The position numbers were made by a program, and so were the translations under genes. Below, piece by piece: positions 4,148 to 28,575 of a stretch of DNA of 60,335 bases (the stretch's first letter is position 1; the number at the start of each line of letters is the position of its first letter). The stretch lies in NCBI GenBank assembly GCA_023473595.1, contig JAMCYV010000011.1, positions 1-60,335 on the forward strand, given 5' to 3'. Origin of the DNA: Patescibacteria group bacterium. Its GTDB lineage: Bacteria > Patescibacteriota > CPR2 > UBA1875 > JAMCYV01. The notes under the pieces were generated by a model, which did no database searches, was not told the origin of the DNA, and saw nothing but the letters and a program-made list of their open reading frames with translations.

Positions 4148-4522
4148 ATGGCTAGTTTAGAAGATTTAAAAATTTATAAAATGGCATGTGATTTAGAAAA
4201 ATTTGTTTATGAATTGGTGATTTCATTTCCAAAAGAGGAAAAGTATCGTCAAATTGATCAAATGAAAAGATCCTCTGCATCGGTTTGCGATAATATTGCA
4301 GAAGGTTATGGTAAATTTAGTTTTCAAAGTAAAATTCAATCATTTTATGTTGCTAGAGGAGAAGCAATGGAAATAAAAAACCAATTGGAAAGGTCGATCA
4401 ATAAAAAGTTTGTTACCAAAAATAAAGCTGAAAATCTAATAAAAGGTTATACAGAATTAATAAAGGGTATTAATGGTTATATTAATTACTTGCGAAAGGA
4501 GAAGGAAAACCTAGTTTCCTAA
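4148..4522 (+). CDS. four-helix-bundle protein (23S rRNA intervening-sequence protein family)
   Basis: 124 aa. Family-typical pattern KIYKMACDL..V..L...FPKEEKY....Q..RS..SV..NIAEGYG...........ARGE..E. Confidence 0.8.
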   Translation: MASLEDLKIYKMACDLEKFVYELVISFPKEEKYRQIDQMKRSSASVCDNIAEGYGKFSFQSKIQSFYVARGEAMEIKNQLERSINKKFVTKNKAENLIKGYTELIKGINGYINYLRKEKENLVS

Positions 4523-4547: not shown

Positions 4548-7379
4548 ATGAGAATACCGATTAATTGGCTTAAAGAATATGTGGATTTCAAACTGACGAC
4601 AGGGGAGCTTTCTGATAAATTAACGATGTCCGGGACGGAAAATGAGATCTTGAGCGAAGCGACGGCGATTGATCCGAATGTCATCGTGGCGGAAATCCTA
4701 GAGATCAAACCACATCCAAATGCCGACAAACTAAGGGTTGTGAGAGTTAGAATTTCAGATAAAGAGGAAAAGGAGATAGTCTGCGGAGCGGCAAACATCG
4801 AAGCCGGGCAGAAAGTGCCTTTAGCTTTGCCAGGTGCAAAATTCGGGGAATTTGAGATCGAAGAAACCGAAATAAGAGGGGTAAAGTCGCCGGGAATGCT
4901 TTGTTCGGAAAAAGAACTGGGGATTTCTGACCATGCGGAAGGGATTATGATTCTAGAACCGGATTCACCTGTCGGTGAAAGCTTGGCTAACATTTTAAGG
5001 GGCGGTAAAAATGTCTTAGAAGCGGAAATTACTCCAAATAGGGGTGATTGTCTTTCCATTATTGGGGTCGCTAGAGAGGTGGCGGCGGTAACAGGAAAGA
5101 GAATTAAGGATTTAGAATTTAGAATTAAGGAGTCTAAAGAAAGGGCGGAAGATTTTCTAAATATTAAAGTCGAGGAAAAAGAACTTTGTCCTCGGTATGT
5201 TGCAAGAGTAGTCAAAATTAAAAATAACGGCAAATCGCCGAAATGGATGCAGGAAAGATTAATTGAATCGGGGATAAGGCCTATAAGCATGGTCGTCGAC
5301 GTTACAAATTATGTCATGCTTGAAATGGGCCAACCTTTGCATGCTTTCGATTTTGATAAGTTAACAGTTAACAGTAAACAGAAAACAGAAATAATTGTTC
5401 GCAGAGCAAAGGATAATGAAATAATTAAAACTCTAGATGGAATTGAAAGAAAGCTAACAAAAGATGATTTGGTTATTGCTGATTTAAAGCAAGCTATTGC
5501 CGTTGCCGGGGTCATGGGCGGAGCCAATACAGAAGTTGATGAAAATACCAAAATGGTGATTCTAGAGTCAGCAGCTTTCGATAAAGTATCCGTTAGAAAG
5601 ACGGCCCAAAAGTTGAATTTAAGAAGCGAAGCTTCGAATCGATTTGAAAAAGGCATTCCTATATCTCTAAATGAAATGGCTATCGACCGGGCGGCATGGC
5701 TTTTAGCAGAAATTGCCGGCGGCGAGGTCATGTCCGGGCGGCTGGACGTCCTTTCCAAATGGATTTGGGTTCAGCATATAGGATTTAGAATCTCGAACTT
5801 TGAAAAGTTCTTGGGGGAAAGGGTCGAGGAAAAAAGGATTGTTGAGATTCTTAAATCTTTAGGCTTTGAAGCAGAAAAATTTGATATTAAAAAAGAAGCC
5901 AAAAAACACTTGGGGAAGCCTTATATTTATGGCGCCAGTTTCAGGACTCACGGAACTAATGCCTTTGATTGCTCCTATTTTACTGATTATATTTATTCTT
6001 TGATCGGTCTAAATATCGGCCACACAGCTCTCGATCAATTTGAAAATGGCAAGGAAGTAAAAGAAAAAGACTTAAAACCCGGCGACTTACTCTTCTACAT
6101 TGGTCACAATCCGAGGAAAAGCAAAAAATATCCCAAAGGCGTCGGACATGTCGGGCTTTACATAGGGGGCGGGGAAATAGTGGATTCTGTAAAGTTTGAA
6201 TATGATGAGAAAACTAAGACCTACAAAGAGAAGGGCCATCAGGCAGTCCATGAACAACCGGTAGAAATCTTTATGGAAAACCCTGAATTCTTGGGCGCCA
6301 GAAGATACTATGATGATTTAGATGATTTCATTGCGGTCGCTGTCCCTTGGTGGCGACTTGATGTTACTTTGGAAGAAGACCTCTATGAAGAAGTAACAAG
6401 AATTTATGGCTATAACAAGGTAAAAAGTACCTTGCCTATAGGGGAGCTCCCAAAGCCCAAGGATTTAGAAAAACTTTCTTTAGTTAAAAAAATAAGAGAG
6501 GTTTTAAAGGGAATTGGCTTTGCTGAAACTTACAATTATTCATTTATCGGCGAAGATTCATTTAAAGCGCTTGATTTAGATTTAAAAGACGCCGTCAAAA
6601 TCCAAAATCCGATTGCCAAAGATCTTGAATACATGAGAACTTTGCTTTTGCCTTCGCTTCTCTTAGATATTCAAAAAAACCAAGGCAATTTTGAGGCGAT
6701 TAAAATATTCGAGATCGCCCAAATCTACTTAAGCAAAGGAAAGATTGATTCCTTACCGGAAGAAATTCCGCATCTTGCCGGGGCTATTTTAGGAGGCGAA
6801 TCGCCAGGGATAAATTATAAAGAAGGGAAAGAATTCTATCAGATAAAGGGAGCGATCCAAAATATTGCTAAAGAGATTTTAGACAAAATTGATTTTGTTC
6901 CAGGAACAAATAAAAACCTTCATCCTTTTAGATCAGCTGATCTTTTAATCAAAGGCAAAAAGATCGGTTTTATAGGAGAAGTTAAACCAGATATTCTTCG
7001 AAAATTCGATATCAAAAAGAGGACTGCTATTTTTGAAATTGATCTTTCAACTATTTTAGAAATAGTAGGAAAAGAAAAAAGATTTGTTCCTTTCAGCCGC
7101 TATCCTTCTATTTCTAGAGATTTAGCCTTTGTTATAGGAAAAAACGTTCAGGTAAAGGATATACTTTCCGTGGTTGACCCAAAGAGCGACCTAGTCCAAA
7201 ATATTTCCATAAAAGACATATATTTTGGCAAGGAAATGGGCGAGAATAAGAAAAGCGTTCTTATAAATATTATCTACCAGGGAAAAGACAGAACCCTTGA
7301 AGAAAAAGAGATAGAAAACATTGAGAAGAAAGTTATTGAAAATGTTAGCCAAAAACTCCAGGGTACGCTAAGGGATTAG
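4548..7379 (+). CDS. pheT: phenylalanine--tRNA ligase beta subunit with an inserted NlpC/P60 domain
   Basis: N-terminal tRNA-binding OB fold (KPHPNADKLRVVRV). B5 consensus flanks FLGERVEEKRIVEILKSLGF and VAVPWWRLDVTLEEDLYEEVTRIYGYN. FDX-ACB-like C terminus. 943 aa, with a ~149-aa insert at 5883-6329. Confidence 0.95.
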   Translation: MRIPINWLKEYVDFKLTTGELSDKLTMSGTENEILSEATAIDPNVIVAEILEIKPHPNADKLRVVRVRISDKEEKEIVCGAANIEAGQKVPLALPGAKFGEFEIEETEIRGVKSPGMLCSEKELGISDHAEGIMILEPDSPVGESLANILRGGKNVLEAEITPNRGDCLSIIGVAREVAAVTGKRIKDLEFRIKESKERAEDFLNIKVEEKELCPRYVARVVKIKNNGKSPKWMQERLIESGIRPISMVVDVTNYVMLEMGQPLHAFDFDKLTVNSKQKTEIIVRRAKDNEIIKTLDGIERKLTKDDLVIADLKQAIAVAGVMGGANTEVDENTKMVILESAAFDKVSVRKTAQKLNLRSEASNRFEKGIPISLNEMAIDRAAWLLAEIAGGEVMSGRLDVLSKWIWVQHIGFRISNFEKFLGERVEEKRIVEILKSLGFEAEKFDIKKEAKKHLGKPYIYGASFRTHGTNAFDCSYFTDYIYSLIGLNIGHTALDQFENGKEVKEKDLKPGDLLFYIGHNPRKSKKYPKGVGHVGLYIGGGEIVDSVKFEYDEKTKTYKEKGHQAVHEQPVEIFMENPEFLGARRYYDDLDDFIAVAVPWWRLDVTLEEDLYEEVTRIYGYNKVKSTLPIGELPKPKDLEKLSLVKKIREVLKGIGFAETYNYSFIGEDSFKALDLDLKDAVKIQNPIAKDLEYMRTLLLPSLLLDIQKNQGNFEAIKIFEIAQIYLSKGKIDSLPEEIPHLAGAILGGESPGINYKEGKEFYQIKGAIQNIAKEILDKIDFVPGTNKNLHPFRSADLLIKGKKIGFIGEVKPDILRKFDIKKRTAIFEIDLSTILEIVGKEKRFVPFSRYPSISRDLAFVIGKNVQVKDILSVVDPKSDLVQNISIKDIYFGKEMGENKKSVLINIIYQGKDRTLEEKEIENIEKKVIENVSQKLQGTLRD

Positions 7380-7380
7380 A

Positions 7381-8988
7381 ATGAAACAAAAAAAAGCGAT
7401 TCTTTTAGATGGAATTTACGTCGACGAAGATAAATTCGAAGCGGTTAAAATTGAGAAAGAAAAAGAATCAGTCCCTAAAAAGAAGAGAGACATAAAGGAA
7501 AAGAAAGGTTCTCGAAAGAAATATTTCTTAAAGGCCATTACGGCGGTATTTTCAACAATTTTTTTTCTTTTAATTGCATTCTCACTTGGCATTTACTTCG
7601 GTTTCGGCAGTTTCTATAAAAATCAAGCCTTCCCCAGTGTCTACGTCTTGGGCCAGCATATCGGCGGCAAATATAAGCCAGAAGTTGAGAAAATCGTAAG
7701 AAAAGGTCTTGATGATACTAGAATCTACTTTCAGATAGACAAAAAAGAAGAATCAGTCAGCCTCTATGATTTAGGAGTCATTATAAATGCCGATGAGCTT
7801 GCCAGAGATTCCTTCAAAGTGGGAAGAACCGGAAAAATAACAGATGATTTTTTGAGCCGGCTTTCTTCCTTTGTTTACTGGCTTTCGCCTAAACTTTATG
7901 CAGGGAGTTTTGGTAAAAACACTGTAGATATTAACTACAACATCAATAGAGAAAAGTTGGAAGGCTTTTCGAAAACCCTTTTTGAAAAATACAAAAACCC
8001 CGGTAAAAACGCCTCAATCATAATAAAAGGCGTCGATGTCGAGGTATTGCCATCGCAGTATGGAGAAAAAATCATCACCGATACTCTTTCAGAACAAATA
8101 CGAATCGCTTTAAATGGGCTTAAAGAAGGAGACAAAGTAGTCTTAGGTCTCTCAAAGGAGAAAGTGGCGCCAAGCATCCAGGAAAACAATCTAGGGGAAA
8201 CCGTTGCTAAAACGAGAGTGATTATTAATAAAAATGTTGTTTTAAAGTTTGAAGAGAAAACTTACTCGCCTACCAAAGAGCAGATTGCGTCCTGGATCCT
8301 CTTCGAAGAGGCGAGCGGGATTCTAGTCCCTAAGGTTGCTCAAGAGAGCGTCGAAGCTTACTTAAATGAAGTTGCTAAAAATATCGATATTACTCCTATT
8401 AATAGGAAGATAAGGGTTGAAAACGGGGTAAAAGAAGTTGTTGAAGAAGAAGGAAAAGAAGGGAGGAGTCTTTTAGTCGTTGATGATGCTGCTAAATTAA
8501 AAACAGCATTAGAAGGCGGCGATCAAGATATTTATCAGAATCTAATTGTAGTGACCGTTTATCCAAAAGAGATTAGAAATGATGTTTTAATCGCCAATTG
8601 GGATAAATATATAGACATCAATGTTTCAACTCAGACCCTGGTAGCTTATGAAAAAGGCGGAGTCCAAGTAGGGAGTTGGGCAGTAACAACAGGGAAGGAA
8701 AGTACTCCGACACCTGTTGGGATTTGGCTTGTTCACGGTAAATCAGAAGTAACGAGAATGACCGGCGGAACACCTGGAATAGACTATTATGATCTCCCTA
8801 ACGTCCATTGGGTCACTTGGTTTAAGGGCGGGGGTTTTTCTATTCACGAAGCCTATTGGAGGAGCTCTTTTGGGGGAGCGGATTATGTCTGGAGCGGTTC
8901 CCATGGCTGTGTAAATGCGACTTATGATGCGGCTCTCTTTATCTATAATTGGGCACCAATCGGAACTCCGGTAATTGTCCATTATTAG
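7381..8988 (+). CDS. L,D-transpeptidase (YkuD domain) with N-terminal TM anchor
   Basis: C-terminal YkuD signature ..TPTPVGIW...............HE......GGADYVWSGSHGCVN. TM segment AITAVFSTIFFLLIAFSLGIYFGF. ATG lies 1 nt after the pheT stop. Confidence 0.9.
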   Translation: MKQKKAILLDGIYVDEDKFEAVKIEKEKESVPKKKRDIKEKKGSRKKYFLKAITAVFSTIFFLLIAFSLGIYFGFGSFYKNQAFPSVYVLGQHIGGKYKPEVEKIVRKGLDDTRIYFQIDKKEESVSLYDLGVIINADELARDSFKVGRTGKITDDFLSRLSSFVYWLSPKLYAGSFGKNTVDINYNINREKLEGFSKTLFEKYKNPGKNASIIIKGVDVEVLPSQYGEKIITDTLSEQIRIALNGLKEGDKVVLGLSKEKVAPSIQENNLGETVAKTRVIINKNVVLKFEEKTYSPTKEQIASWILFEEASGILVPKVAQESVEAYLNEVAKNIDITPINRKIRVENGVKEVVEEEGKEGRSLLVVDDAAKLKTALEGGDQDIYQNLIVVTVYPKEIRNDVLIANWDKYIDINVSTQTLVAYEKGGVQVGSWAVTTGKESTPTPVGIWLVHGKSEVTRMTGGTPGIDYYDLPNVHWVTWFKGGGFSIHEAYWRSSFGGADYVWSGSHGCVNATYDAALFIYNWAPIGTPVIVHY

Positions 8989-9102
8989 TAGAATCTAGAT
9001 CTAAGTCTTTAGAATCTGGATAAATAAAAAGCTTTTTACCATTTTCTTTTTTATTTCTTATATTTGATATGCTAAAATAAACTTGAGAATTAAGGAGAAA
9101 AA

Positions 9103-9522
9103 ATGTTAGACCTTAAGACTAATCCAGAGGAGGTCAATCCTCTTGGAGAAGAAGAAAATTTAAAAAGCGGTGAATTTCCGCTTCCAAGCCCTGAGAAAAA
9201 GGAGACGGAAGAAGTAATTGCTCCTGAACCGAATGTTATGCCAGCTGAAAAACCGCAAACTCAAGCACCGATTCCAAATATCCCGCCGGTAGTTTCTCCC
9301 CAAAAGCCATCAGGGGTTCAAAATCCCCAAACTTCGCCTCTACCCGTTGATAGTGAAGCTGAAGATACTGATAGTATTGAAAAGCCTTGGGTTGATAAGG
9401 CGGAGGAAATCATAAAAGACCACAAAAGCGATCCGTACACAGAAGAAGAAGACCATGAAAACTTAGAAATCGAATATCTCTCTAAAAGGTTTGGTAAAAA
9501 CATAAAAAAGGGCGACGATTAA
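9103..9522 (+). CDS. acidic, proline-rich hypothetical protein
   Basis: 139-aa ORF with RBS taaggag. E/P-rich low-complexity N half. No signal peptide or TM seen. Confidence 0.65.
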   Translation: MLDLKTNPEEVNPLGEEENLKSGEFPLPSPEKKETEEVIAPEPNVMPAEKPQTQAPIPNIPPVVSPQKPSGVQNPQTSPLPVDSEAEDTDSIEKPWVDKAEEIIKDHKSDPYTEEEDHENLEIEYLSKRFGKNIKKGDD

Positions 9523-9530
9523 CTTAAAAA

Positions 9531-12008
9531 ATGTTTATTACTCTTCTTATTTCAATAATTGTTCTTTCGGCAGCCGGTTTTGCAGGATTCTTTTTTTATA
9601 GAAAGAGCCGAAGCTGGCGGAAACAGATTGAAAGATCTCTAAAAATGGTCCCTTTTATAGTGAGAATTCCCCAATCTACAGGACAAGATAGGGCAGGGAA
9701 TAGGGATGAAAGAGAGATTGCCAAGGAACTTATCTCCAAAGCAGAAAATGTCTATTACTCCATTTATTCGACCTATAAGAAGGGGTTTAAGAATTTTATA
9801 GTTGGCCAAAAACATTTGGCAATCGAGATAGTAGCCCAAAAAGGGGAAATCTCTTTTTATTTTTCTGTGCCCATTACTTTAGTCGGACTTATTGAGAAGA
9901 CGATCACTTCCCAGTATTCGGAGGCGGTAGTAGAAGAGGCAGAGGAACATAATATTTTCTTTAAAGAACAAAACTTAAGAGATATTTATGGAGGCGAGTT
10001 TTCTTTAAGAAGAAAATCTATCTTTCCTTTAAAAACTTATGAGACGATTGATCTTGATCCTTTAGAAGCGATTACCAATTCTCTTAGCAAGCTCGAAGAG
10101 AAAGAAGGGGCGGCGATCCAAATTCTTATTCGACCGGCCGATCCTAAATTCGTAAAATCAGCGAAATATGTCGCCGACCGGATGCAAAAAGGCGAATATA
10201 AAGAAAAGTTTATGTTCTCTAAGGTAGCTAGGGAAATCGGAAAAGGGCTTTCAAATGCAGCGCTCAATAAACAGGAAGACTTTTCTAATAAACAAGCCAA
10301 ACAGCTGACTCCAGCTGAAGAAGAGACAATAAAAGCGATTCAAAACAAAGCATCAAAGCCGGTTTTTGAAACGGTTATAAGAGTCATAGTCTCTGCTTCT
10401 AGTCCGGTAAGGGGAGAAATGATCCAGAATGAAATTATCGGCTCCTTCCAGCAATTCAATGATTTTAATTTAAACCAATTAAAATTTGAGAGAGCCAAAG
10501 ACAAAGAAAGGCTGGTAACTGATTATATTTTTCGATTTTTCGGGTTCAGGAGTCAAATGATTTTAAATGCGGAGGAGCTAGCATCAATCTATCATTTGCC
10601 CAATTATTTGATTAGGACTCCTAATATTAAATGGCTGCCAGCCAAGAGGACAGCAGCTCCTGTGGCTTTGCCAAGCGAAGGGACTATCCTAGGCGAGACG
10701 GCTTTCAGAGGAGAAACCAGGGACATCCGGCTTTCTAATGAAGATCAAAAAAGGCATATCTACATTATCGGGCAGACCGGAACTGGTAAGACGAATATGA
10801 TGAAAAATATGATTCTTGATGAGATAAGCAAAGGCAACGGACTTTGCTACATCGATCCTCACGGGATGGACTTCCAAGATATTCTCTATAAAATTCCTAA
10901 GGAAAGGGCGGAAGATGTCGTTATTTTCGACGCTTCGGATGTCGAAAGGCCTTTAGGGCTTAATCTTTTTGAAGCAAAAACTATTGAAGAGCAAGATTTT
11001 GTTATCCAAGAGGCTATCCAAATGCTCTATAAGCTCTATGATCCAGGGCACACTGGAATAATGGGGCCGAGGTTCGAACATTGGTTTAGGAATGCGGCTC
11101 TTGCCATTATGGCCGATCCCAAGGGCGGGACGTTCCTGGAAGTTCCCAAAATCTTTACCGATGATAACTATTTGCAAGAAAAACTTAAGTATGTAAAAGA
11201 TCCAGTAGTTAGGAATTTCTGGCTTTCGGAAATGGCCCAGACAAATGAATTTCATAAGTCTGAAGTCTTGGGCTGGTTTGTCGGCAAATTCGGCGCTTTT
11301 ATGACAAATTCCACTATGCGAAACATTTTAGGGCAGGTCGAGACTTCCTTAAATTTACAGGAGATTATGGATAAGAAGAAAATTCTTTTAATTAATCTTG
11401 CCAAGGGCAAAGTCGGGGAGCTAAATATGTCGCTTTTAGGGATGATTTTAGTCTCCAAGATTCAAATGACGGCAATGAGCAGAGTGGGAATGCCCGAAGA
11501 CCAAATAGTTGATTTTACTCTCTATGTCGATGAATTCCAAAACTTTGCGACCGATTCTTTTGCCAGTATTCTATCTGAAGCCCGAAAATTCGGACTTCGA
11601 CTTGTTGTCGCTAATCAGTTCATAGGGCAATTAAAAGAAGAGATCAAAGATGCGGTTTTTGGGAATGTTGGCACTCTTGTTAGTTTCAGAGTCGGGCCGG
11701 AGGATGGGGAATTTATGGCCAAGCAATTTGAACCGGTCTTTAATACTTCTGATCTTATCAATATCGAAAACTACCATGCTTTCATTAAACTTATGGTAAG
11801 CGGAATGCCGACTAAGCCTTTCACCATGAAAGCCAAACCGCCTACGGGTACAGCTGATAAAGGAAGAGGGGAAGCAATAAGGCAGCTTGCACGTCTTAAA
11901 TACGGCCGGGCAAGGGAGATTGTTGATAAAGAAATTCAAGAAAAGCTTCAGATAGGAGGAAAGACTGAAGCTCCGATGGATGTTCCAAGGGATATAATGG
12001 GGGGCTAG
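9531..12008 (+). CDS. membrane-anchored P-loop ATPase of the TraD/VirD4/HerA (type IV coupling protein-like) superfamily
   Basis: N-terminal TM (LLISIIVLSAAGFAGFFFY), Walker A GQTGTGKT, IDPHG motif, Walker B FTLYVDEFQNF, then ARKFGLRLVVANQ. Confidence 0.85.
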   Translation: MFITLLISIIVLSAAGFAGFFFYRKSRSWRKQIERSLKMVPFIVRIPQSTGQDRAGNRDEREIAKELISKAENVYYSIYSTYKKGFKNFIVGQKHLAIEIVAQKGEISFYFSVPITLVGLIEKTITSQYSEAVVEEAEEHNIFFKEQNLRDIYGGEFSLRRKSIFPLKTYETIDLDPLEAITNSLSKLEEKEGAAIQILIRPADPKFVKSAKYVADRMQKGEYKEKFMFSKVAREIGKGLSNAALNKQEDFSNKQAKQLTPAEEETIKAIQNKASKPVFETVIRVIVSASSPVRGEMIQNEIIGSFQQFNDFNLNQLKFERAKDKERLVTDYIFRFFGFRSQMILNAEELASIYHLPNYLIRTPNIKWLPAKRTAAPVALPSEGTILGETAFRGETRDIRLSNEDQKRHIYIIGQTGTGKTNMMKNMILDEISKGNGLCYIDPHGMDFQDILYKIPKERAEDVVIFDASDVERPLGLNLFEAKTIEEQDFVIQEAIQMLYKLYDPGHTGIMGPRFEHWFRNAALAIMADPKGGTFLEVPKIFTDDNYLQEKLKYVKDPVVRNFWLSEMAQTNEFHKSEVLGWFVGKFGAFMTNSTMRNILGQVETSLNLQEIMDKKKILLINLAKGKVGELNMSLLGMILVSKIQMTAMSRVGMPEDQIVDFTLYVDEFQNFATDSFASILSEARKFGLRLVVANQFIGQLKEEIKDAVFGNVGTLVSFRVGPEDGEFMAKQFEPVFNTSDLINIENYHAFIKLMVSGMPTKPFTMKAKPPTGTADKGRGEAIRQLARLKYGRAREIVDKEIQEKLQIGGKTEAPMDVPRDIMGG

Positions 12009-12010
12009 CC

Positions 12011-12039
12011 TTGACATTTCTTAGTTTTTATGGTTAAAT
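12011..12039 (+). promoter_or_regulatory. candidate sigma70-type promoter for the coiled-coil gene
   Basis: ttgaca(12011-12016), 17-nt spacer, ttaaat(12034-12039). Confidence 0.35.
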
Positions 12040-12058
12040 AAGTGAAAAGTTAATTTTT

Positions 12059-14998
12059 ATGGCGAATCCCAATAAATTATCAAATCCTAATACTCAATTT
12101 GACGAGGCTAAAGTCTCCAAATTAGCCGATGGTGTTTATGATGCTTTGAAAAGTAGCGGGCAGGAGGAGACTGAAAAAGAGCTATTGAATCGTGGCCTCA
12201 TTGAAACTGAAATGCAAGGCAGTGATAAAGTGCCTAAAAGAGATGCAAGCGGCAATGTCGTTTTTGTAAAAAGTAAGGAAGAAGACGCTGAAGCTTATAA
12301 AAGAGGTCTCTCAAAATTTCGAAATTTTGATAGACAGGCTAATGATATGTTGGAACTTTTAAATAGTAAAAAGGGGGTAGATAGGCTAAAAAGAGCATTA
12401 ACAACTCAGCAATTAGTCGATTCGGAATTTAATAAATCTACAAAAGAGTGGGTTTCTATCCCTGATAATAATGGTAATTTAGTCTTTAAAGACAAAATTG
12501 TTGAAGACGCCTATAAAGAAGCCTATGAACTAAAAAAACAGGGCAAAAAGCCTGTCAAAGCGGTTCACCCAGCCTCGGAACCCTCACTTTCTAATAGTCC
12601 TGCGTCGTCAGAAAAAAGCTGGGATGAGAAGATGAAAGAACATGATAAATGGACAAAAGGTTTGGCTGAAAAACATGAAAAAGGTAGGGAAAAAGTAGAG
12701 CAGACAGAATATAAGAAAAATTTAGAAGCCATTGAAAAAGCTAAGAAGCTAAGCGATATTACTGATTATTTCAATGATCTGGCCTTAGAAACTGAAACCA
12801 ATGAACTGATTACTGCTGAAGAAAAACATTTTGAAAAGGGAGTTCCCATTGATACAGAGGGCGAGAAGTTATTTGCCGAGTTTAAAAAAAAGGCGCAGAC
12901 AATCGAAAGAAATAGGGTACAAGAGTTTGCAAAATCGAAAGTCGAAGAAATTTTTAAGGATGCTGCCGAAAACCCGTTCAACCTGACGGAAAAAATAGCC
13001 AAAACGAGAGCTCTTGATGCTTTGCCTTCAGATATCTTAAGATCCTTTTCTGATGAGGGGATAAAAAACCAAGTTCTAGAAGCTTTAGAAAAAGATATTT
13101 TTGAAATAAGTCCTCAAGGGGAAATTCGAATAGGTATAGATAAAGATGGCAACCAACTCCCGGAAGCGGTCGCTGCTTTTGAATTTCTAAAAACAGAGAC
13201 TAACTCTCTTATAACAAAAGAAGCTGTAGATGAAGCAGTTGAAAGAGGCGAAAATAGCAATTTGGGGATTTCTGATAAGCTGCAAGCCGTTTATAAAACT
13301 GTGGGTGAAAGCAATACTCTAAAAAGGCTTGAGCCAAAGGATATTTTGGAAAGTATTGGTGGTCAGCATCCTGAAATTAAAGATCGCATTCTTGCTCTCA
13401 TTGACCAAAAAGTCTTATCTATCGATGAAAATAGTGAAATAAAGCTAGCTAAAGATGCCGACGGCAGTGATTTATCTGGAGCAGTTGCAGCTTTAAATGA
13501 AATTGCAAAAGATACTCGAGAACTAATCGAAGCTCAGAATCGAGAAGAAATTCTGAACCCCATAACTATAAATAAAAGGACGGCCGAGAGAATGAATCAG
13601 CATCCTGTCGGCGAAGCCATGGCTAAATATTTGGATGACTTAAATTCAGAAAGGCTAAAGCTTGAAGCAGAGCTTGCCGGGAGATCCTGGCTTAAGATGC
13701 TTGGCGGTGAAAGCCGAAGCATAAAAGCTGAACTTAAAGAAAAAAAAGCAGATCTTAAGGAAATGACTAAACTTAAGGAAGAATGGCTTAGCCGAGAAGT
13801 AAGGTATATAAGACAATCAGTTGAAAACCAAGAAGAGCTTAGAAGACTTTTTGCTGAAAATCCGGATGGCAGATTTGACGACGAAACAGTTAAGAAGATT
13901 CTAAAGAACAATGCTAAAATGGCTTCTTCATGGAGAGAGATTCACGATGATCTCTTTTCAAGGATTATTACTGAAGGGGGTTTTGAGACTTCTCCTGAAT
14001 CAATCGAAGGCTATAAGGGGCCGTCTTCTGCCGAGATCTTATCCGAAAGCGAGGAAAAGGACGAAATTTTAGGAGAAATTCAAGCCGATATTATTAGCAA
14101 GTTAACTGATGCCGAATTAAGCAAAGAGGAAGCCCAAGATTTTATAAAAGACCAGGGCGGCGAATCGATCGCTTATCTTGCGATGGATAAAAAAGCTAGA
14201 AAAATCATGCTCGGCGATTTAAACGAGCTTTTATATAATATTGAAAATTATAAACCAGGCGAGATTTTCAATATTTTAGACATGCTAAAACAAAATGAAA
14301 AATTAGAGAAGCAGCACGATAATACTCTCAAGAGGGAAGTAAAAGGTAGAATCAGGAGCTTCAAAATTCAAGGATTCTTTAGAAGAAGGGAGAAAGAAGC
14401 AAAGCAGATTTTTCGTCGGACTCTTAATTCAACTGCTCAGGTAGAATACGACACTAAGCTTAAAGAAGTAATTGAAGAAGGTAAAAATAGGGCAACTGCC
14501 GGGACTTTGAGGTGGCTTGGCAAAAGGCATCAAGAGCTAAAAGGCATTCCGACAGAAGTTAGCTACGGGTATTCAAGTACGATGGACTTTCTAAATTCCG
14601 CTCTCCAATTTGTAGGTAATCTCGAAGTCGCCGGCAGACCGGTAGCAAGCGGAGTTTTTAATACTGAAGGCAGGGGAATTGAGCTAGGCCACGATCTAGA
14701 CAGAAAAAAACAAAGACTTCAGGACTTAAAGGCAGTTCGAGCGAGGCTTATTCAAAGCAGCAAAAGAAATGCCGAAAAAAGAGAGCTAGATGATCAGAAA
14801 AAAAAGAGAGCAAAAAATATTGCTAGAATCAAAAGAAAAAGAATAGAGGCTGGAAATCGAGCCGAACATGAAGCCCTTAGAGAACAAGAGGGGTACATTA
14901 CTGCGGAAGAAGAACTCCAAGCGCGACTTCAAGAATCAGCCGATTTCTTTAATAATTTAAAAGATTTATTAACGCCGACCAAAAAAGAAAATGAGTAA
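12059..14998 (+). CDS. very large K/E-rich coiled-coil protein, hypothetical
   Basis: 979-aa uninterrupted ORF, heavily charged. Internal ~65-aa duplication (about 13010-13225 and 13325-13540). Basic C-terminal tail. Confidence 0.8.
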   Translation: MANPNKLSNPNTQFDEAKVSKLADGVYDALKSSGQEETEKELLNRGLIETEMQGSDKVPKRDASGNVVFVKSKEEDAEAYKRGLSKFRNFDRQANDMLELLNSKKGVDRLKRALTTQQLVDSEFNKSTKEWVSIPDNNGNLVFKDKIVEDAYKEAYELKKQGKKPVKAVHPASEPSLSNSPASSEKSWDEKMKEHDKWTKGLAEKHEKGREKVEQTEYKKNLEAIEKAKKLSDITDYFNDLALETETNELITAEEKHFEKGVPIDTEGEKLFAEFKKKAQTIERNRVQEFAKSKVEEIFKDAAENPFNLTEKIAKTRALDALPSDILRSFSDEGIKNQVLEALEKDIFEISPQGEIRIGIDKDGNQLPEAVAAFEFLKTETNSLITKEAVDEAVERGENSNLGISDKLQAVYKTVGESNTLKRLEPKDILESIGGQHPEIKDRILALIDQKVLSIDENSEIKLAKDADGSDLSGAVAALNEIAKDTRELIEAQNREEILNPITINKRTAERMNQHPVGEAMAKYLDDLNSERLKLEAELAGRSWLKMLGGESRSIKAELKEKKADLKEMTKLKEEWLSREVRYIRQSVENQEELRRLFAENPDGRFDDETVKKILKNNAKMASSWREIHDDLFSRIITEGGFETSPESIEGYKGPSSAEILSESEEKDEILGEIQADIISKLTDAELSKEEAQDFIKDQGGESIAYLAMDKKARKIMLGDLNELLYNIENYKPGEIFNILDMLKQNEKLEKQHDNTLKREVKGRIRSFKIQGFFRRREKEAKQIFRRTLNSTAQVEYDTKLKEVIEEGKNRATAGTLRWLGKRHQELKGIPTEVSYGYSSTMDFLNSALQFVGNLEVAGRPVASGVFNTEGRGIELGHDLDRKKQRLQDLKAVRARLIQSSKRNAEKRELDDQKKKRAKNIARIKRKRIEAGNRAEHEALREQEGYITAEEELQARLQESADFFNNLKDLLTPTKKENE

Positions 14999-15389
14999 GA
15001 CAGAAGCCGATACAAAGAAACAAATAATATCTATCTTAAAAGAACAGCTTAATCTAGATGAAAAAACTGCTGATTCTTTAATACAAAAAATTGAAAAAAA
15101 TGGCTTAGATCCTGTTTTGCCAGAAATTATTTCCTTATATGACAAGCATATTGCGAAGGAAGAACAAGAAATTTCAAATACCGAAAAACAGACCGAGACC
15201 GAAAATGATTCAAAGTTTGAAAAATGGTTTGATGAAGAATACCAAAAAAGGTATGTCGAGCCGGAGACCAAAGACCAGGACAAAGCTCTGGAAGATCTGG
15301 ACAAAGAACTTACTGAAATTGAGTCGGATGTTAACCGAAAAATAGAGAAATTGAACCAGGATTTTAAAGCTAAAATATCTAGCAAATAA
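14991..15389 (+). CDS. acidic coiled-coil hypothetical protein
   Basis: 132-aa ORF. Its ATG overlaps the stop of the preceding gene (aaaATGAGTAA), suggesting translational coupling. Confidence 0.6.
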   Translation: MSKTEADTKKQIISILKEQLNLDEKTADSLIQKIEKNGLDPVLPEIISLYDKHIAKEEQEISNTEKQTETENDSKFEKWFDEEYQKRYVEPETKDQDKALEDLDKELTEIESDVNRKIEKLNQDFKAKISSK

Positions 15390-15414
15390 AGGGCAAAATT
15401 AGCTTTTAAAAAGT

Positions 15415-15443
15415 TTGCATTTTTTCCTTTAATTAGGTATAAT
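15415..15443 (+). promoter_or_regulatory. candidate gyrB promoter
   Basis: ttgcat(15415-15420), 17-nt spacer, tataat(15438-15443). The 14-mer attaggtataattt recurs upstream of the GIY-YIG gene at about 20734. Confidence 0.5.
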
Positions 15444-15538: not shown

Positions 15539-17920
<2,382 letters not shown>

Positions 17921-25757: not shown

Positions 25758-25914
25758 AGCTCTTAGCCTTTTTTAAAGGCTAAAATCAAGTAAACAATTT
25801 CAACGAGTTTTTTAGTTTTCAAAACTAAAAACAAACTCTTTTTTGGAGAATTTTTCATCCTACGGATGACCAACCGAAGGTTGGCAGCCTAGTTTGAATT
25901 ACTTTCCATTCTTT

Positions 25915-25957
<43 letters not shown>

Positions 25958-26072
25958 TTAACACATGCAAGTCGTATGCATTTAGGTGCATGGCGAACTG
26001 GTGAGTAGTACATTGGAATCTGCCCCCATCACGGGGATAACCCGCCGAAAGGCGGGATAATACCCGATAGCC

Positions 26073-26207
26073 CCAGCACATATTTGTCATTAATTTGCTA
26101 ACAAAGACGATTCTTGCAAATCTTGTTCTATTACCTCAGGTGTAGAAATCTAGATCAAAATGGCTCATTCGCAAATTAATAAGTCTTTGATGACAAATAT
26201 GTGCTGG
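26073..26207 (+). other. 16S insertion 1 (V2 / helix 9-10 region), ORF-less long hairpin
   Basis: Perfect 18-bp closing stem ccagcacatatttgtcat(26073-26090)/atgacaaatatgtgctgg(26190-26207), between conserved gataatacccgatag and gtaaagttccggcgg. Confidence 0.85.
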
Positions 26208-26281
26208 GTAAAGTTCCGGCGGATGGGGAGGAGCCTTTGTCCTATCAGCTTGTTGGTGGGGTAACGGCCTACCAAGGCTAT

Positions 26282-26316
<35 letters not shown>

Positions 26317-26329
26317 TTGGGACTGAGAT

Positions 26330-26360
<31 letters not shown>

Positions 26361-26477
26361 AGGAATCTTCCGCAATGGGCGCAAGCCTGACGGAGCAACG
26401 CCGCGTGAAGGATGACGGCCTTCGGGTTGTAAACTTCTTTTCTCTGGGAAGATTATGACGGTACCAGAGGAATAAGC

Positions 26478-26521
<44 letters not shown>

Positions 26522-26685
26522 AAGCGTTATCCGGAATTACTGGGCGTAAAGAGTGTGTAGGTGGTGGTCTAAGTCAGATGTTAAATCTCTGGGCTTAACT
26601 CAGAGGCTGCATCTGATACTGGATTGCTAGAGACAAGAAGAGGTAAGCGGAATTCTCGGTGTAGCAGTTAAATGCGTAGATATCG

Positions 26686-26718
<33 letters not shown>

Positions 26719-26752
26719 TCTTGTTCTGACACTGAGACACGAAAGCGTGGGG

Positions 26753-26783
<31 letters not shown>

Positions 26784-26858
26784 CGCTGTAAACGATGCCT
26801 ACTGGCTGTGGGTTTCGACGACCTCGAGATCCGTAGCGAAGCTAACGCGTTAAGTAGG

Positions 26859-26926
<68 letters not shown>

Positions 26927-27023
26927 ACACGTGGTTTAATTCGACTCTAAGCGAAGAACCTTACCGAGGCTTGACATCCTGGGAACCCCGGCGAAAGTCG
27001 GGGGTGCCTTCGGGAACCCAGTG

Positions 27024-27066
<43 letters not shown>

Positions 27067-27139
27067 AGGTTAAGTCCTTTAACGAGCGCAACCCTTGCTC
27101 TGTGTTGTATGTTTCACAGAGGACTGCCCTGGTCAACGG

Positions 27140-27174
<35 letters not shown>

Positions 27175-27403
27175 TCTTACGCCTCGGGCTACACACATGT
27201 TACAATGGCTAGCACAATGGGTCGCGAACCCGCGAGGGGAAGCTAATCTCATCAAAACTAGTCCCAGTTCGGATTGAAGGCTGCAATTCGCCTTCATGAA
27301 GTCGGAATCGCTAGTAACCGTGGGTCAGCAATACCACGGTGAATACGTTCTCGGGTCTTGTACACACCGCCCGTCACACCACGAAAGTTGGTAACATCCG
27401 AAA

Positions 27404-27540
27404 CCCCGCACATATTTTCGATCCAAAACTGCCCAATTTGTCCTAAATATAGTTAGTTTTGATTTGGGCAAAGTGTGGCAAAAGTAAATTATAATTGCAA
27501 AGAGTTTTGGCAGGACAAATTATCGAAACTATGTGCGGGG
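27404..27540 (+). other. 16S insertion 2 (tip of helix 44), ORF-less extended helix
   Basis: ccccgcacat(27404-27413)/atgtgcgggg(27531-27540) closing stem, with further internal pairing (ttcgat/atcgaa, aatttgtcct/aggacaaatt). Confidence 0.85.
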
Positions 27541-27630
27541 TGAAGATGGGACCAGCGATTGGGGTGAAGTCGTAACAAGGTATCCGTAGGGGAATCTGCG
27601 GATGGATCACCTCCTTTCTAAAGGAGAAAT

Positions 27631-28134: not shown

Positions 28135-28211
28135 GGGCGTGTAGCTCAGTTGGTTAGAGCGCGTCACTGATAATGACGAGGTCCCTGGTTCAAATCCAGG
28201 CACGCCCACCA
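28135..28211 (+). tRNA. tRNA-Ile (GAT), CCA encoded
   Basis: Cloverleaf gggcgtg/cacgccc, anticodon loop ctGATaa, T loop ttcaaat. Confidence 0.95.
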
Positions 28212-28217
28212 TAAAGT

Positions 28218-28481
28218 ATGAGCGAACTTTTGCAAAGAATAATTTACGGCTCCTTGGGAATAATCTTCGGCGTTGTCTTGGTTTGGAAATCCCATGAGAT
28301 CGTGAACAATGTCGGCCACAATTATTGGGCCGAAGAACATTTAGGCGAAGGAGGAACCTACAATTTGGTAAGGTTTCTCGGGGTTTTCTTAATGTTTGTC
28401 TTTTTTGCATATATGATAGGAAAATTGGGGGTAGTTTATTTGGCTGTATCAAAGTTTTTCAGAAATCTGATAGGAAGTTAA
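28218..28481 (+). CDS. small two-TM membrane protein encoded between tRNA-Ile and tRNA-Ala
   Basis: 87-aa ORF with two clear hydrophobic segments. ATG lies 6 nt after the tRNA, with no obvious RBS. The antisense 108-aa ORF is R/P-rich and overlaps the tRNA. Confidence 0.4.
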   Translation: MSELLQRIIYGSLGIIFGVVLVWKSHEIVNNVGHNYWAEEHLGEGGTYNLVRFLGVFLMFVFFAYMIGKLGVVYLAVSKFFRNLIGS

Positions 28482-28499
28482 AGAATTGTTAATTATTAT

Positions 28500-28575
28500 G
28501 GGCCCGTAGCTTAGCTGGTAGAGCGCCTGCTTTGCAAGCAGGAGGTCAGGAGTTCGAATCTCCTCGGGTCCACCA
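28500..28575 (+). tRNA. tRNA-Ala (TGC), CCA encoded
   Basis: gggcccg/cgggtcc acceptor with G3:U70, anticodon loop ttTGCaa. Confidence 0.95.

Follow-up and report, generated by a model that had tools for sequence, protein, structure and literature searches.

The window analyzed here is a 60,335-nt stretch of DNA from a Patescibacteria group bacterium (GTDB lineage Bacteria; Patescibacteriota; CPR2; UBA1875; JAMCYV01; GenBank assembly GCA_023473595.1, contig JAMCYV010000011.1), and four + strand open reading frames (ORFs), A-B-C-D, occupy its positions 9103-15389. Gene B encodes an ATPase that very probably belongs to the lineage of type IV coupling proteins (T4CPs). The reading that we moderately favor is a mosaic operon, in which a conserved A-B core is followed by a lineage-restricted C-D add-on, with B as a coupling-type translocase ATPase for a distant type IV secretion system (T4SS). 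A small upstream ORF together with B constitutes a phylum-wide module, and C-D is a co-inherited pair of a narrow lineage that is frequently, though not invariably, linked to B. Patescibacteria live in dependence on host cells, and in the single species tested the T4SS was essential. Three points are new here: the full-length homology that ties a ubiquitous orphan ATPase to plasmid coupling proteins of Gram-positive bacteria, the small upstream partner gene that almost always accompanies the ATPase, and the variable slot behind the ATPase gene, which is occupied here by C and D as concrete candidates for cargo or accessory factors. The discovery is incremental, because the ATPase family has already been described and C and D remain orphans. 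An original prediction, made by a model from the nucleotide letters, had proposed a lineage-specific four-gene translocation or filament system around a TraD/VirD4-like ATPase. That idea was partly supported, and the naming of B was right.

Structure of the Operon

The cluster lies between an L,D-transpeptidase gene and gyrB (Table 1). The four co-directional, tightly spaced genes had been predicted at this place, and their coordinates were confirmed exactly. In the ORF listing, A and B were separated by 8 nt and B and C by 50 nt, and the ATG of D lay within the last codons of C, with an 8-nt overlap (AATGAGTAA). A promoter-like site precedes A, and AAGGAG stands between this site and the ATG of A. 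No + strand terminator-like site was found in the intergenic spacers from A to D, and the two + strand matches were both inside the coding sequence of B. The promoter-like site ahead of gyrB appears, from its hexamers, to mark the downstream boundary of the operon. The four ORFs are real genes and form a real operon. In addition, C-D may possess its own start, because the B-C spacer holds a TTGACA/TTAAAT pair; the consensus scan skipped this pair because the −10 hexamer has no A at position 2. Among the four proteins, only B had a hydrophobic segment (amino acids (aa) 2-23), and A, C, and D, which had none, were all acidic.

Domain Architecture and Family of Gene B

B was predicted to be a membrane-anchored P-loop ATPase carrying the motifs GQTGTGKT, IDPHG, and YVDEFQNF, and all of these were present. 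In a family alignment of 20 sequences, the Walker A residues G414-K420, DPHG at 442-445, and DEFQNF at 667-672 were invariant. The AlphaFold2 (AF2) model of B had a mean predicted local distance difference test score (pLDDT) of 79, with an N-terminal helix at aa 2-37 and a short helical C-terminus. Most of the protein should lie in the cytoplasm, because the basic residues YRKSRSWRK follow the transmembrane segment (positive-inside rule). Behind the anchor there is an α/β domain, DUF8128, in which aa 226-255 form a disordered loop, and then the ATPase domain, in which an all-α insertion (aa ~485-614) stands in the AF2 model at the position of the all-α domain of T4CPs. The DUF8128 assignment was taken from precomputed annotation (PF26449), and the local Pfam copy does not contain this model. 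The profile of this domain alone found no significant relatives in the PDB or in the local Pfam, and a literature search for 'DUF8128' returned no papers.

The profile and structure searches placed B in the TraD/VirD4/HerA superfamily, as the prediction of a coupling-protein/HerA-like ATPase had it. In the Pfam scan, B matched TrwB_AAD_bind (2.5e-9, 37 bits, cut-off 20.5) at model positions 8-43 of 387 only and DUF87 (7.6e-8, 33 bits, cut-off 23.2) at aa 403-479 only. TraG-D_C reached 20.4 bits, which was under its cut-off of 22, and the T4SS-DNA_transf model gave no match on B. The top NCBIfam models were those of T4CPs, namely SXT_TraD (2e-11), TrbC (9e-11), and the CD1115 VirD4-like model (5e-9), and they outranked the VirB4, HerA, and FtsK/EccC models. 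Furthermore, DotL (2.7e-7) and TrwB (1e-6) ranked first in the PDB profile search. In the Foldseek comparison, the B model aligned with TrwBΔN70 at a TM-score of 0.61-0.64 (normalized to the target) over ~415-460 columns, and with Cagβ and DotL at ~0.54. VirB4 and HerA were found with E-values of 3e-13 and 3.5e-12, respectively, at a global TM-score of only ~0.3. In addition, the published CONJScan t4cp1 profile matches members of the B family with high coverage (supplement).

Like TrwB of R388, TraD, VirD4, Cagβ, and DotL, B possesses a RecA-like domain, the Walker A and B motifs, and the all-α insertion; however, its sequence identity to these canonical T4CPs was only 14-16%. VirB4 (TrwK) and HerA share the ASCE/FtsK-HerA superfamily with B. 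The Foldseek alignments with VirB4 extended over ~900 columns, and VirB4 has the same layout of an N-domain plus an ATPase, but the family signature was not reached (NCBIfam VirB4_plasma, 19 bits against a cut-off of 590). HerA was likewise far from its cut-off (17 bits against 970). Moreover, B has no NurA-like neighbor, and its N-domain is the α/β DUF8128, whereas that of HerA is a HAS-barrel.

A large-database search with B returned 4,711 homologs, the best of which were 50-68% identical and ~820-845 aa long. PF26449 was annotated on B and on nearly all of the 120 homologs among the matches listed, in addition to TrwB_AAD_bind, DUF87, or T4SS-DNA_transf. Many homologs were longer, at 940-1,570 aa (e.g., L001 730-5436; P0111-P0120), with long, disordered, Pro/Ala-rich C-terminal tails. 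These tails contained the short conserved motifs GSSFLDDWL (GSSFLDDWLAKR) and LSIxDITGG, which could be docking motifs.

Distribution and Neighborhood of Gene B

The loci of B were surveyed with one genome per GTDB species; more than 517 loci were found and 80 were retained. The family occurred in Saccharimonadia, Microgenomates, Parcubacteria, Berkelbacteria, and Peregrinibacteria. The identity of B to its homolog in locus L082 was 68%, and that of GyrB was likewise 68%. Quiñonero-Coronel et al. 2025 (PMC12102498) report 5,713 VirD4-type T4CP homologues, which are spread over 2,918 of the 3,035 Patescibacterial genomes. These homologues and the PF26449 proteins agreed with B in architecture and length (~820-845 aa), many of them at 50-68% identity. 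They also lie on the chromosome, have no relaxase, and are usually distant from virB4, and B itself showed no substantive difference from them. The excerpted account of the T4CP homologues does not mention the small upstream partner, the slot of variable content behind the ATPase gene, or C-D.

B had been called an 'orphan' ATPase. This held in that no T4SS partner was nearby, but B is not special in this respect, since the same family is present in nearly all Patescibacteria (PMC12102498). In a previous study, the essential T4SS cluster had no recognizable coupling protein or relaxase (Wang et al. 2023, PMC10633639). Because T4CP homologues are mostly far from virB4 and this cluster lacks a coupling protein, the orphan position is the norm for the B family.

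The recurrent neighbors of B differed among the classes. In Saccharimonadia they were gyrB/gyrA and a ComM-like Mg-chelatase, in Parcubacteria dnaX and ribonucleotide reductase, and in Microgenomates a Xer-type tyrosine recombinase. No universally conserved downstream partner of B was found across the phylum. Between B and gyrB, the Saccharimonadia loci (L003-L034) had a conserved two-gene module in ~17 loci, which encodes a ~190-aa protein with a C-terminal transmembrane segment and a 520-870-aa transmembrane protein with PKD/DUF11 surface repeats. This module was mostly on the opposite strand and was co-directional in L009 and L019.

Tandem or nearby pairs of DUF8128-type ATPase genes were seen in L024 (1242-~5800), L025, L026, and L059. 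The presence of two B-type genes in one locus raises the possibility of hetero-oligomers. The pairs also agree with the ~2 T4CP homologues per genome that can be taken from the published text.

Plasmid Homologs of Gene B

The plasmid homologs of B were searched by tblastn against PLSDB. A total of 383 records were matched, and in 86 of them one place covered at least 80% of B. The records belonged mainly to Bacillaceae, Streptomyces, and haloarchaea. The homolog of Shouchella clausii/Peribacillus plasmids aligned in a single high-scoring segment pair over B aa 64-771 (25% identity, BLASTP 7e-53), and this alignment spans both the DUF8128 and the ATPase domains. On the Bacillaceae plasmids, the gene order was a PriCT primase, the B homolog, a Replic_Relax relaxase, and then TcpC, TcpE, and an AAA_10 VirB4-type ATPase. 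The place of the Bacillaceae homologs is thus that of the coupling protein in a conjugation module of Gram-positive bacteria, and this position supports the origin of B from the T4CP lineage. A plasmid ancestry of B also fits the reported derivation of the Patescibacterial T4SS from monoderm MPF-FATA systems (PMC12102498).

The Shouchella clausii protein WP_248290882.1 (NZ_CP012476.1) is homologous to B over its full length, but differs in its surroundings: it stands beside the relaxase, TcpC, TcpE, and the VirB4-type ATPase, whereas B is chromosomal and lacks these neighbors. Furthermore, its N-terminus had, by eye, no hydrophobic stretch like that which anchors B in the membrane, and it carries a long acidic C-terminal tail.

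In haloarchaeal plasmids, as on pNATPE01 of Natrinema pellirubrum (L092 8770-12937), the DUF8128 region was a separate 382-aa ORF directly upstream of a 994-aa ATPase of the TraM-recognition/T4SS-DNA_transf type, which is a split version of the architecture of B. Genes with TIR domains and a ComEC/Rec2 gene were located near this split locus.

Gene A and the Upstream Small Protein

A had been predicted to be an acidic and Pro-rich protein, and its isoelectric point (pI) was 4.4 with 14% Pro. The N-terminal half was Pro-rich and of low-complexity composition, and the C-terminal ~65 aa (nt 9319-9519) were conserved, with the helical motif IEKxWVxKAxxI...DPY...YLKKRFG. The identity of this C-terminal region to the L082 homolog was 57%. 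The Pfam scan gave no match on A.

In 28 Saccharimonadia-type loci, the gene directly ahead of B was a homolog of A, mostly at a distance of 0-20 nt, and the sequence family was confined to Saccharimonadia-type genomes. In the other classes, the position of A was occupied by distinct families of small proteins. Overall, a small co-directional ORF ending at most 300 nt upstream of B was present in 77 of the 80 loci. The possibility that A is a homolog of the upstream small proteins of other classes was rejected, as an iterated profile search and BLAST clustering kept the families separate.

By analogy, A is a candidate lineage-specific adaptor or regulator of B. The analogy comes from CagZ, a small protein whose gene adjoins that of the coupling ATPase Cagβ. 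The entry title of PDB 8dol names the regulation of the Cagβ ATPase by CagZ. However, no sequence similarity between CagZ and A was found, and A looks largely disordered by its composition.

Genes C and D

C was an acidic protein (pI 5.6) with 25% K+E and without a transmembrane segment, and D was acidic (pI 4.7), as predicted, and K/E-rich. C had also been described as K/E-rich with a basic tail. The composition and the net charge of +8 in the last 100 aa bear this out, but the last 30 aa have a net charge of −4. The basic region comprises aa ~750-950. The last 100 aa were net positive in seven of seven C-family members, despite mostly acidic totals. The ratios of nonsynonymous to synonymous substitution (dN/dS) against a homolog of 75-78% identity were 0.12 for C and 0.09 for D, which indicates that both are real genes under purifying selection.

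The C family is small. Two matches were found in a word-indexed database, and six among 1.84 billion representatives in an exhaustive HMMER search. The profile of the D family found only five members in 5.8 billion proteins, each adjoining a C homolog, and D is an obligate genomic partner of C. The conserved core of C in the family alignment was aa ~420-870 (nt 13316-14668). The AF2 model of C had a mean pLDDT of 58.6, with 70-89 in the core and low confidence in the N-terminal ~190 aa. C had been described as a coiled-coil protein, and the model was almost entirely α-helical, with helices of 50-100 residues; the C-terminal one, ~100 residues long (aa 872-971, nt 14672-14971), falls within the net-basic region. 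No Pfam match was obtained on seven family members, nor any PDB sequence-profile match; Foldseek gave no PDB match at E ≤ 0.001, and tblastn of C against plasmids gave no match. The suggested filament or cytoskeletal role of C therefore found no support from Pfam, PDB sequences, or a significant fold match.

A short element was repeated in C at aa ~60-70, 131-145, 350-372, and 453-480, consisting of a β-hairpin 'xGxIxLxxDxDGNxLxxAxxAL' followed by a helix. A BLAST match that joins C aa 333-479 to the N-terminus of the homolog in L083 reveals it, and the AF2 model shows β-strands there.

Co-occurrence of the four genes in relatives had been set beforehand as a test, and the order was kept on three metagenomic contigs. 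L093 and L094 had YkuD, an A-like gene, B, a C homolog, a D-like gene, and then gyrB, as in the window, and L088 had the same series followed by an S8 peptidase gene. L083 and L087, which are truncated by the contig ends, contain C-D, and L087 also gyrB; both are consistent with the order of the window. One dedicated four-part system, which the original prediction had implied, was not borne out, because only the small upstream ORF and B are conserved phylum-wide and C-D is separable (L089).

The slot downstream of B was filled differently in other genomes at the same GyrB distance (68-71% identity). It contained a 935- or 1,170-aa protein with a DUF5663 protein (L082 and L086, respectively), an acidic protein of 399 or 353 aa (L084 and L081, respectively), a PKD-domain membrane protein with a 190-aa protein (L009 and L019), or no gene (L015). 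The proteins of L082 and L086 had, as read from the consensus, hydrophobic Gly/Ala-rich transmembrane-like stretches in their C-terminal halves, which C lacks. The slot proteins of L082, L086, L084, and L081 were considered as diverged C homologs and were unrelated to C by BLASTP, phmmer, and hhalign. A relationship of D to the DUF5663 small proteins was rejected as well (hhalign probability 0.1%). Finally, a Rosetta-stone fusion of B and C was sought in the B homologs of 940-1,570 aa, but the extra sequence was unlike C in being Pro/Ala-rich and disordered. As these long homologs have no C-like domains, fusions give no evidence for a link between B and C.

Proposed Function and Alternative Explanations

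If the mosaic reading is followed, B would form, by analogy with TrwB, DotL, and Cagβ, a membrane-anchored hexameric ring, in which ATP would drive the recruitment of a macromolecule, either protein or DNA, and its threading toward a membrane channel. The lineage of B goes back to the coupling proteins of monoderm conjugation modules; in Patescibacteria it has turned into a chromosomal gene that is inherited vertically, is nearly universal, and has no relaxase. The most likely partner would be the Patescibacterial T4SS of the MPF-FATA type encoded elsewhere in the genome, and that B works with such a distantly encoded T4SS is plausible, if a little short of probable. A might act on B as an adaptor or regulator, comparable to CagZ with Cagβ. 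C, a large all-α protein of the cytoplasm whose C-terminal region is basic, would sit together with the small acidic D in the variable slot between B and gyrB, and the two could be accessory factors or cargo of B, or simply neighbors in the same transcript. A functional tie of C and D to B, as accessories or cargo, is possible but on balance doubtful.

Several observations weigh against the mosaic reading. B has one transmembrane helix instead of the usual two of canonical T4CPs, and the extra ~340-aa DUF8128 domain between its membrane anchor and its ATPase is absent from classic T4CPs. The curated T4CP models matched B at the P-loop only or scored below their cut-offs, and all NCBIfam T4CP models gave at most 43 bits on B against cut-offs of 250-800. 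The recurrent neighbors of B were genes of DNA metabolism and not of secretion, and in 87 loci the 10 kb on either side of B contained no homolog of plasmid conjugation or T4SS genes. In the published survey, only 148 of the 5,713 T4CP homologues were virB4-proximal, and VirB4 was present in 2,417 of 3,035 genomes, which is fewer than the 2,918 with T4CP homologues. Furthermore, the T4CP homologue of S. epibionticum, which is maybe not the ortholog of B, was non-essential in transposon sequencing (Tn-seq), whereas the T4SS was essential (PMC12102498). As for the other genes, the A-like families vary by class and no homology among them was found, C and D were missing from genomes equally related by GyrB identity (68-71%), and in L089 the C-D pair stands beside a PilB-type ATPase gene, with no B homolog in the 18 kb of the locus.

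Part of this evidence would suit an ATPase that was exapted as a T4SS-independent chromosomal DNA translocase, either an FtsK/SftA-like or a repair-associated motor that serves chromosome segregation, the resolution of dimers, or the management of topology. In that case, given its long helices and its basic region, C would serve as a structural partner or as one associated with the nucleoid. The main evidence for this explanation is the DNA-transaction neighbors of B in three class-level contexts; however, these neighbors vary by class and may reflect an origin-proximal location, which is common to the T4SS cluster. The core-gene-like conservation of B, equal to that of GyrB, points in the same direction. 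Non-essentiality is typical of FtsK motor domains and SftA. The Tn-seq result, the prevalence of T4CP homologues over VirB4, and the statement of the authors that exaptation 'cannot be ruled out' can likewise be counted for it (PMC12102498). On the other side, the Pfam FtsK_SpoIIIE match of B was sub-threshold (18.9 bits, cut-off 24) and confined to the P-loop (aa 403-430), no γ domain was matched in the Pfam scan, and B has a single transmembrane helix instead of a multi-transmembrane N-terminus. In addition, TM7x carries a separately annotated ftsK (PMC10768705). Beyond the phylum, the nearest relatives of B were coupling proteins of conjugation and not chromosomal translocases. We consider this role of B unlikely. 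A motor of an anti-phage defense system, of the HerA type or like mad8 of MADS, is far less credible still. PADLOC mad8 matched B with 2.3e-16 over aa 406-752, which is the entire ATPase domain, and there were weak matches to several HerA and DndH models, but these matches are explained by shared superfamily ancestry. A, C, and D had no PADLOC match beyond noise, no nuclease, sirtuin, or methyltransferase gene was adjacent, and the surrounding genes are housekeeping genes instead of a multi-gene defense locus. Moreover, the near-universal, vertical, and gyrB-like conservation of B is unlike that of defense islands.

The relation of C-D to the core can be seen in two further ways. C-D may be an independent lineage-specific two-gene module without any functional tie to A-B, e.g., a cytoplasmic scaffold with its partner, which happens to occupy a slot prone to recombination, flanked by B and gyrB, and is either co-transcribed or driven by a promoter of its own. 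This is a serious contender, though it falls somewhat short of probable. The C-D pair of L089 without B, the unrelated slot occupants or empty slots in genomes of the same GyrB distance, the perfect −35 with a plausible −10 in the B-C spacer, the lack of a Rosetta-stone fusion in the long B homologs, and the non-conserved downstream gene of B across the phylum are all in agreement with it. However, the order B-C-D was kept in L088, L093, and L094 though C had diverged to 22-25% identity, and the short spacers without a + strand terminator-like site between A and D also argue for a joint unit. At the other extreme, A-B might be the receptor and motor for large cytoplasmic proteins encoded in a hypervariable cassette slot downstream, which seems quite improbable. 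Here, the basic C-terminal region of C would resemble the positively charged C-terminal signals of T4SS substrates, D would be the chaperone of C, and the occupants in sister lineages would be the 935/1170-aa protein with its DUF5663 partner or the highly acidic proteins of 350-400 aa. If this were true, the slot would hold rapidly diversifying effectors of an epibiotic lifestyle, delivered via the distantly encoded T4SS.

Features of the Window

The features of the cluster are collected in Table 1. The ORFs of at least 120 aa in the window were scanned with Pfam, and RNA genes were searched with Rfam and ARAGORN. The remaining window was filled with housekeeping genes, including pheS/pheT, gyrA, 16S rRNA, tRNAs, uvrC, ligA, gatCAB, and dnaE. 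No VirB4, relaxase, pilin, or T4SS family was matched in these Pfam scans, although a few ORFs had no Pfam match at all. The predicted absence of T4SS components from the window, amid housekeeping genes, was thus correct, and the neighborhoods of B in the 87 loci agreed with it.

Table 1. Positions of the genes, domains, motifs, and promoter-like sites of the cluster and its flanks in the window
Feature	Position	Strand	Description	Basis
L,D-transpeptidase YkuD/PG_binding_4	7381-8988		upstream flank of cluster	Pfam YkuD 5e-20
Candidate operon promoter, TTTACC-18 nt-TATATT	9035..9064	+	upstream of A	consensus match only
Gene A	9103-9522	+	139 aa	
Gene B	9531-12008	+	825 aa	
N-terminal transmembrane anchor of B	9534..9599	+	aa 2-23	Kyte-Doolittle 19-residue window, maximum 2.33 at aa 3
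DUF8128 α/β domain of B	9642..10670	+	aa ~38-380	precomputed PF26449; AF2 secondary structure
ATPase domain of B	10683..11840	+	aa ~385-770	alignment, AF2 model, Foldseek to TrwB
Walker A, GQTGTGKT	10770-10793	+	B aa 414-421	
IDPHG	10851-10865	+	B aa 441-445	
Walker B, YVDEFQNF	11523-11546	+	B aa 665-672	
Possible internal C-D promoter, perfect TTGACA (12011-12016), 17 nt, TTAAAT (12034-12039)	12011..12039	+	B-C spacer	read from sequence
Gene C	12059-14998	+	979 aa	
Gene D	14991-15389	+	132 aa	
gyrB promoter-like site, TTTGCA-18 nt-TATAAT	15414..15443	+		consensus match only
gyrB	15545-17920		downstream flank of cluster, gyrA beyond	

Some of the surrounding genes had unusual structures. The pheT gene (4548-7379) encodes a phenylalanyl-tRNA synthetase β-subunit of 943 aa, in which an NlpC/P60 cell-wall peptidase domain is inserted at aa ~456-548, between B3_4 and B5 (Pfam NLPC_P60, 7.4e-14; 52 bits, cut-off 23). 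It is unusual for a subunit of an aminoacyl-tRNA synthetase to contain a peptidoglycan hydrolase domain. A gene for a 23S rRNA-intervening-sequence protein (PF05635, 2e-28) lies between pheS and pheT at 4148-4522, and in L093 (4258-4629) a PF05635 gene lies between YkuD and the A-like gene, which indicates that it is mobile within the syntenic block.

The window GyrB has a Lys-rich N-terminal extension (aa 1-~115) of ~115 aa ahead of the conserved start QIQVLEGL and an acidic Glu-rich insertion (aa ~690-720) ahead of the C-terminal domain. The GyrB of L087 is likewise extended at the N-terminus. The gyrB of the related contig L086 (7211-10774) encodes 1,187 aa and contains an intein (Pfam Intein_splicing).

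The 16S rRNA of the window (25911-27617) was 1,707 nt long compared with a model of 1,533 positions, which suggests insertions, and it was followed by tRNA-Ile and tRNA-Ala (region 28135-28575). The rRNA genes appear to be unlinked, because Rfam found no 23S rRNA in the whole window.

Among the surveyed contigs, L016, L017, L028, L031, L035, L061, L062, and others had a Patescibacteria-type locus under unrelated deposited names. The names were Gammaproteobacteria, Bathyarchaeia, Sulfotelmatobacter, Methylomirabilota, and Limisphaerales, and these are probably mis-binned or mislabeled records of metagenome-assembled genomes.

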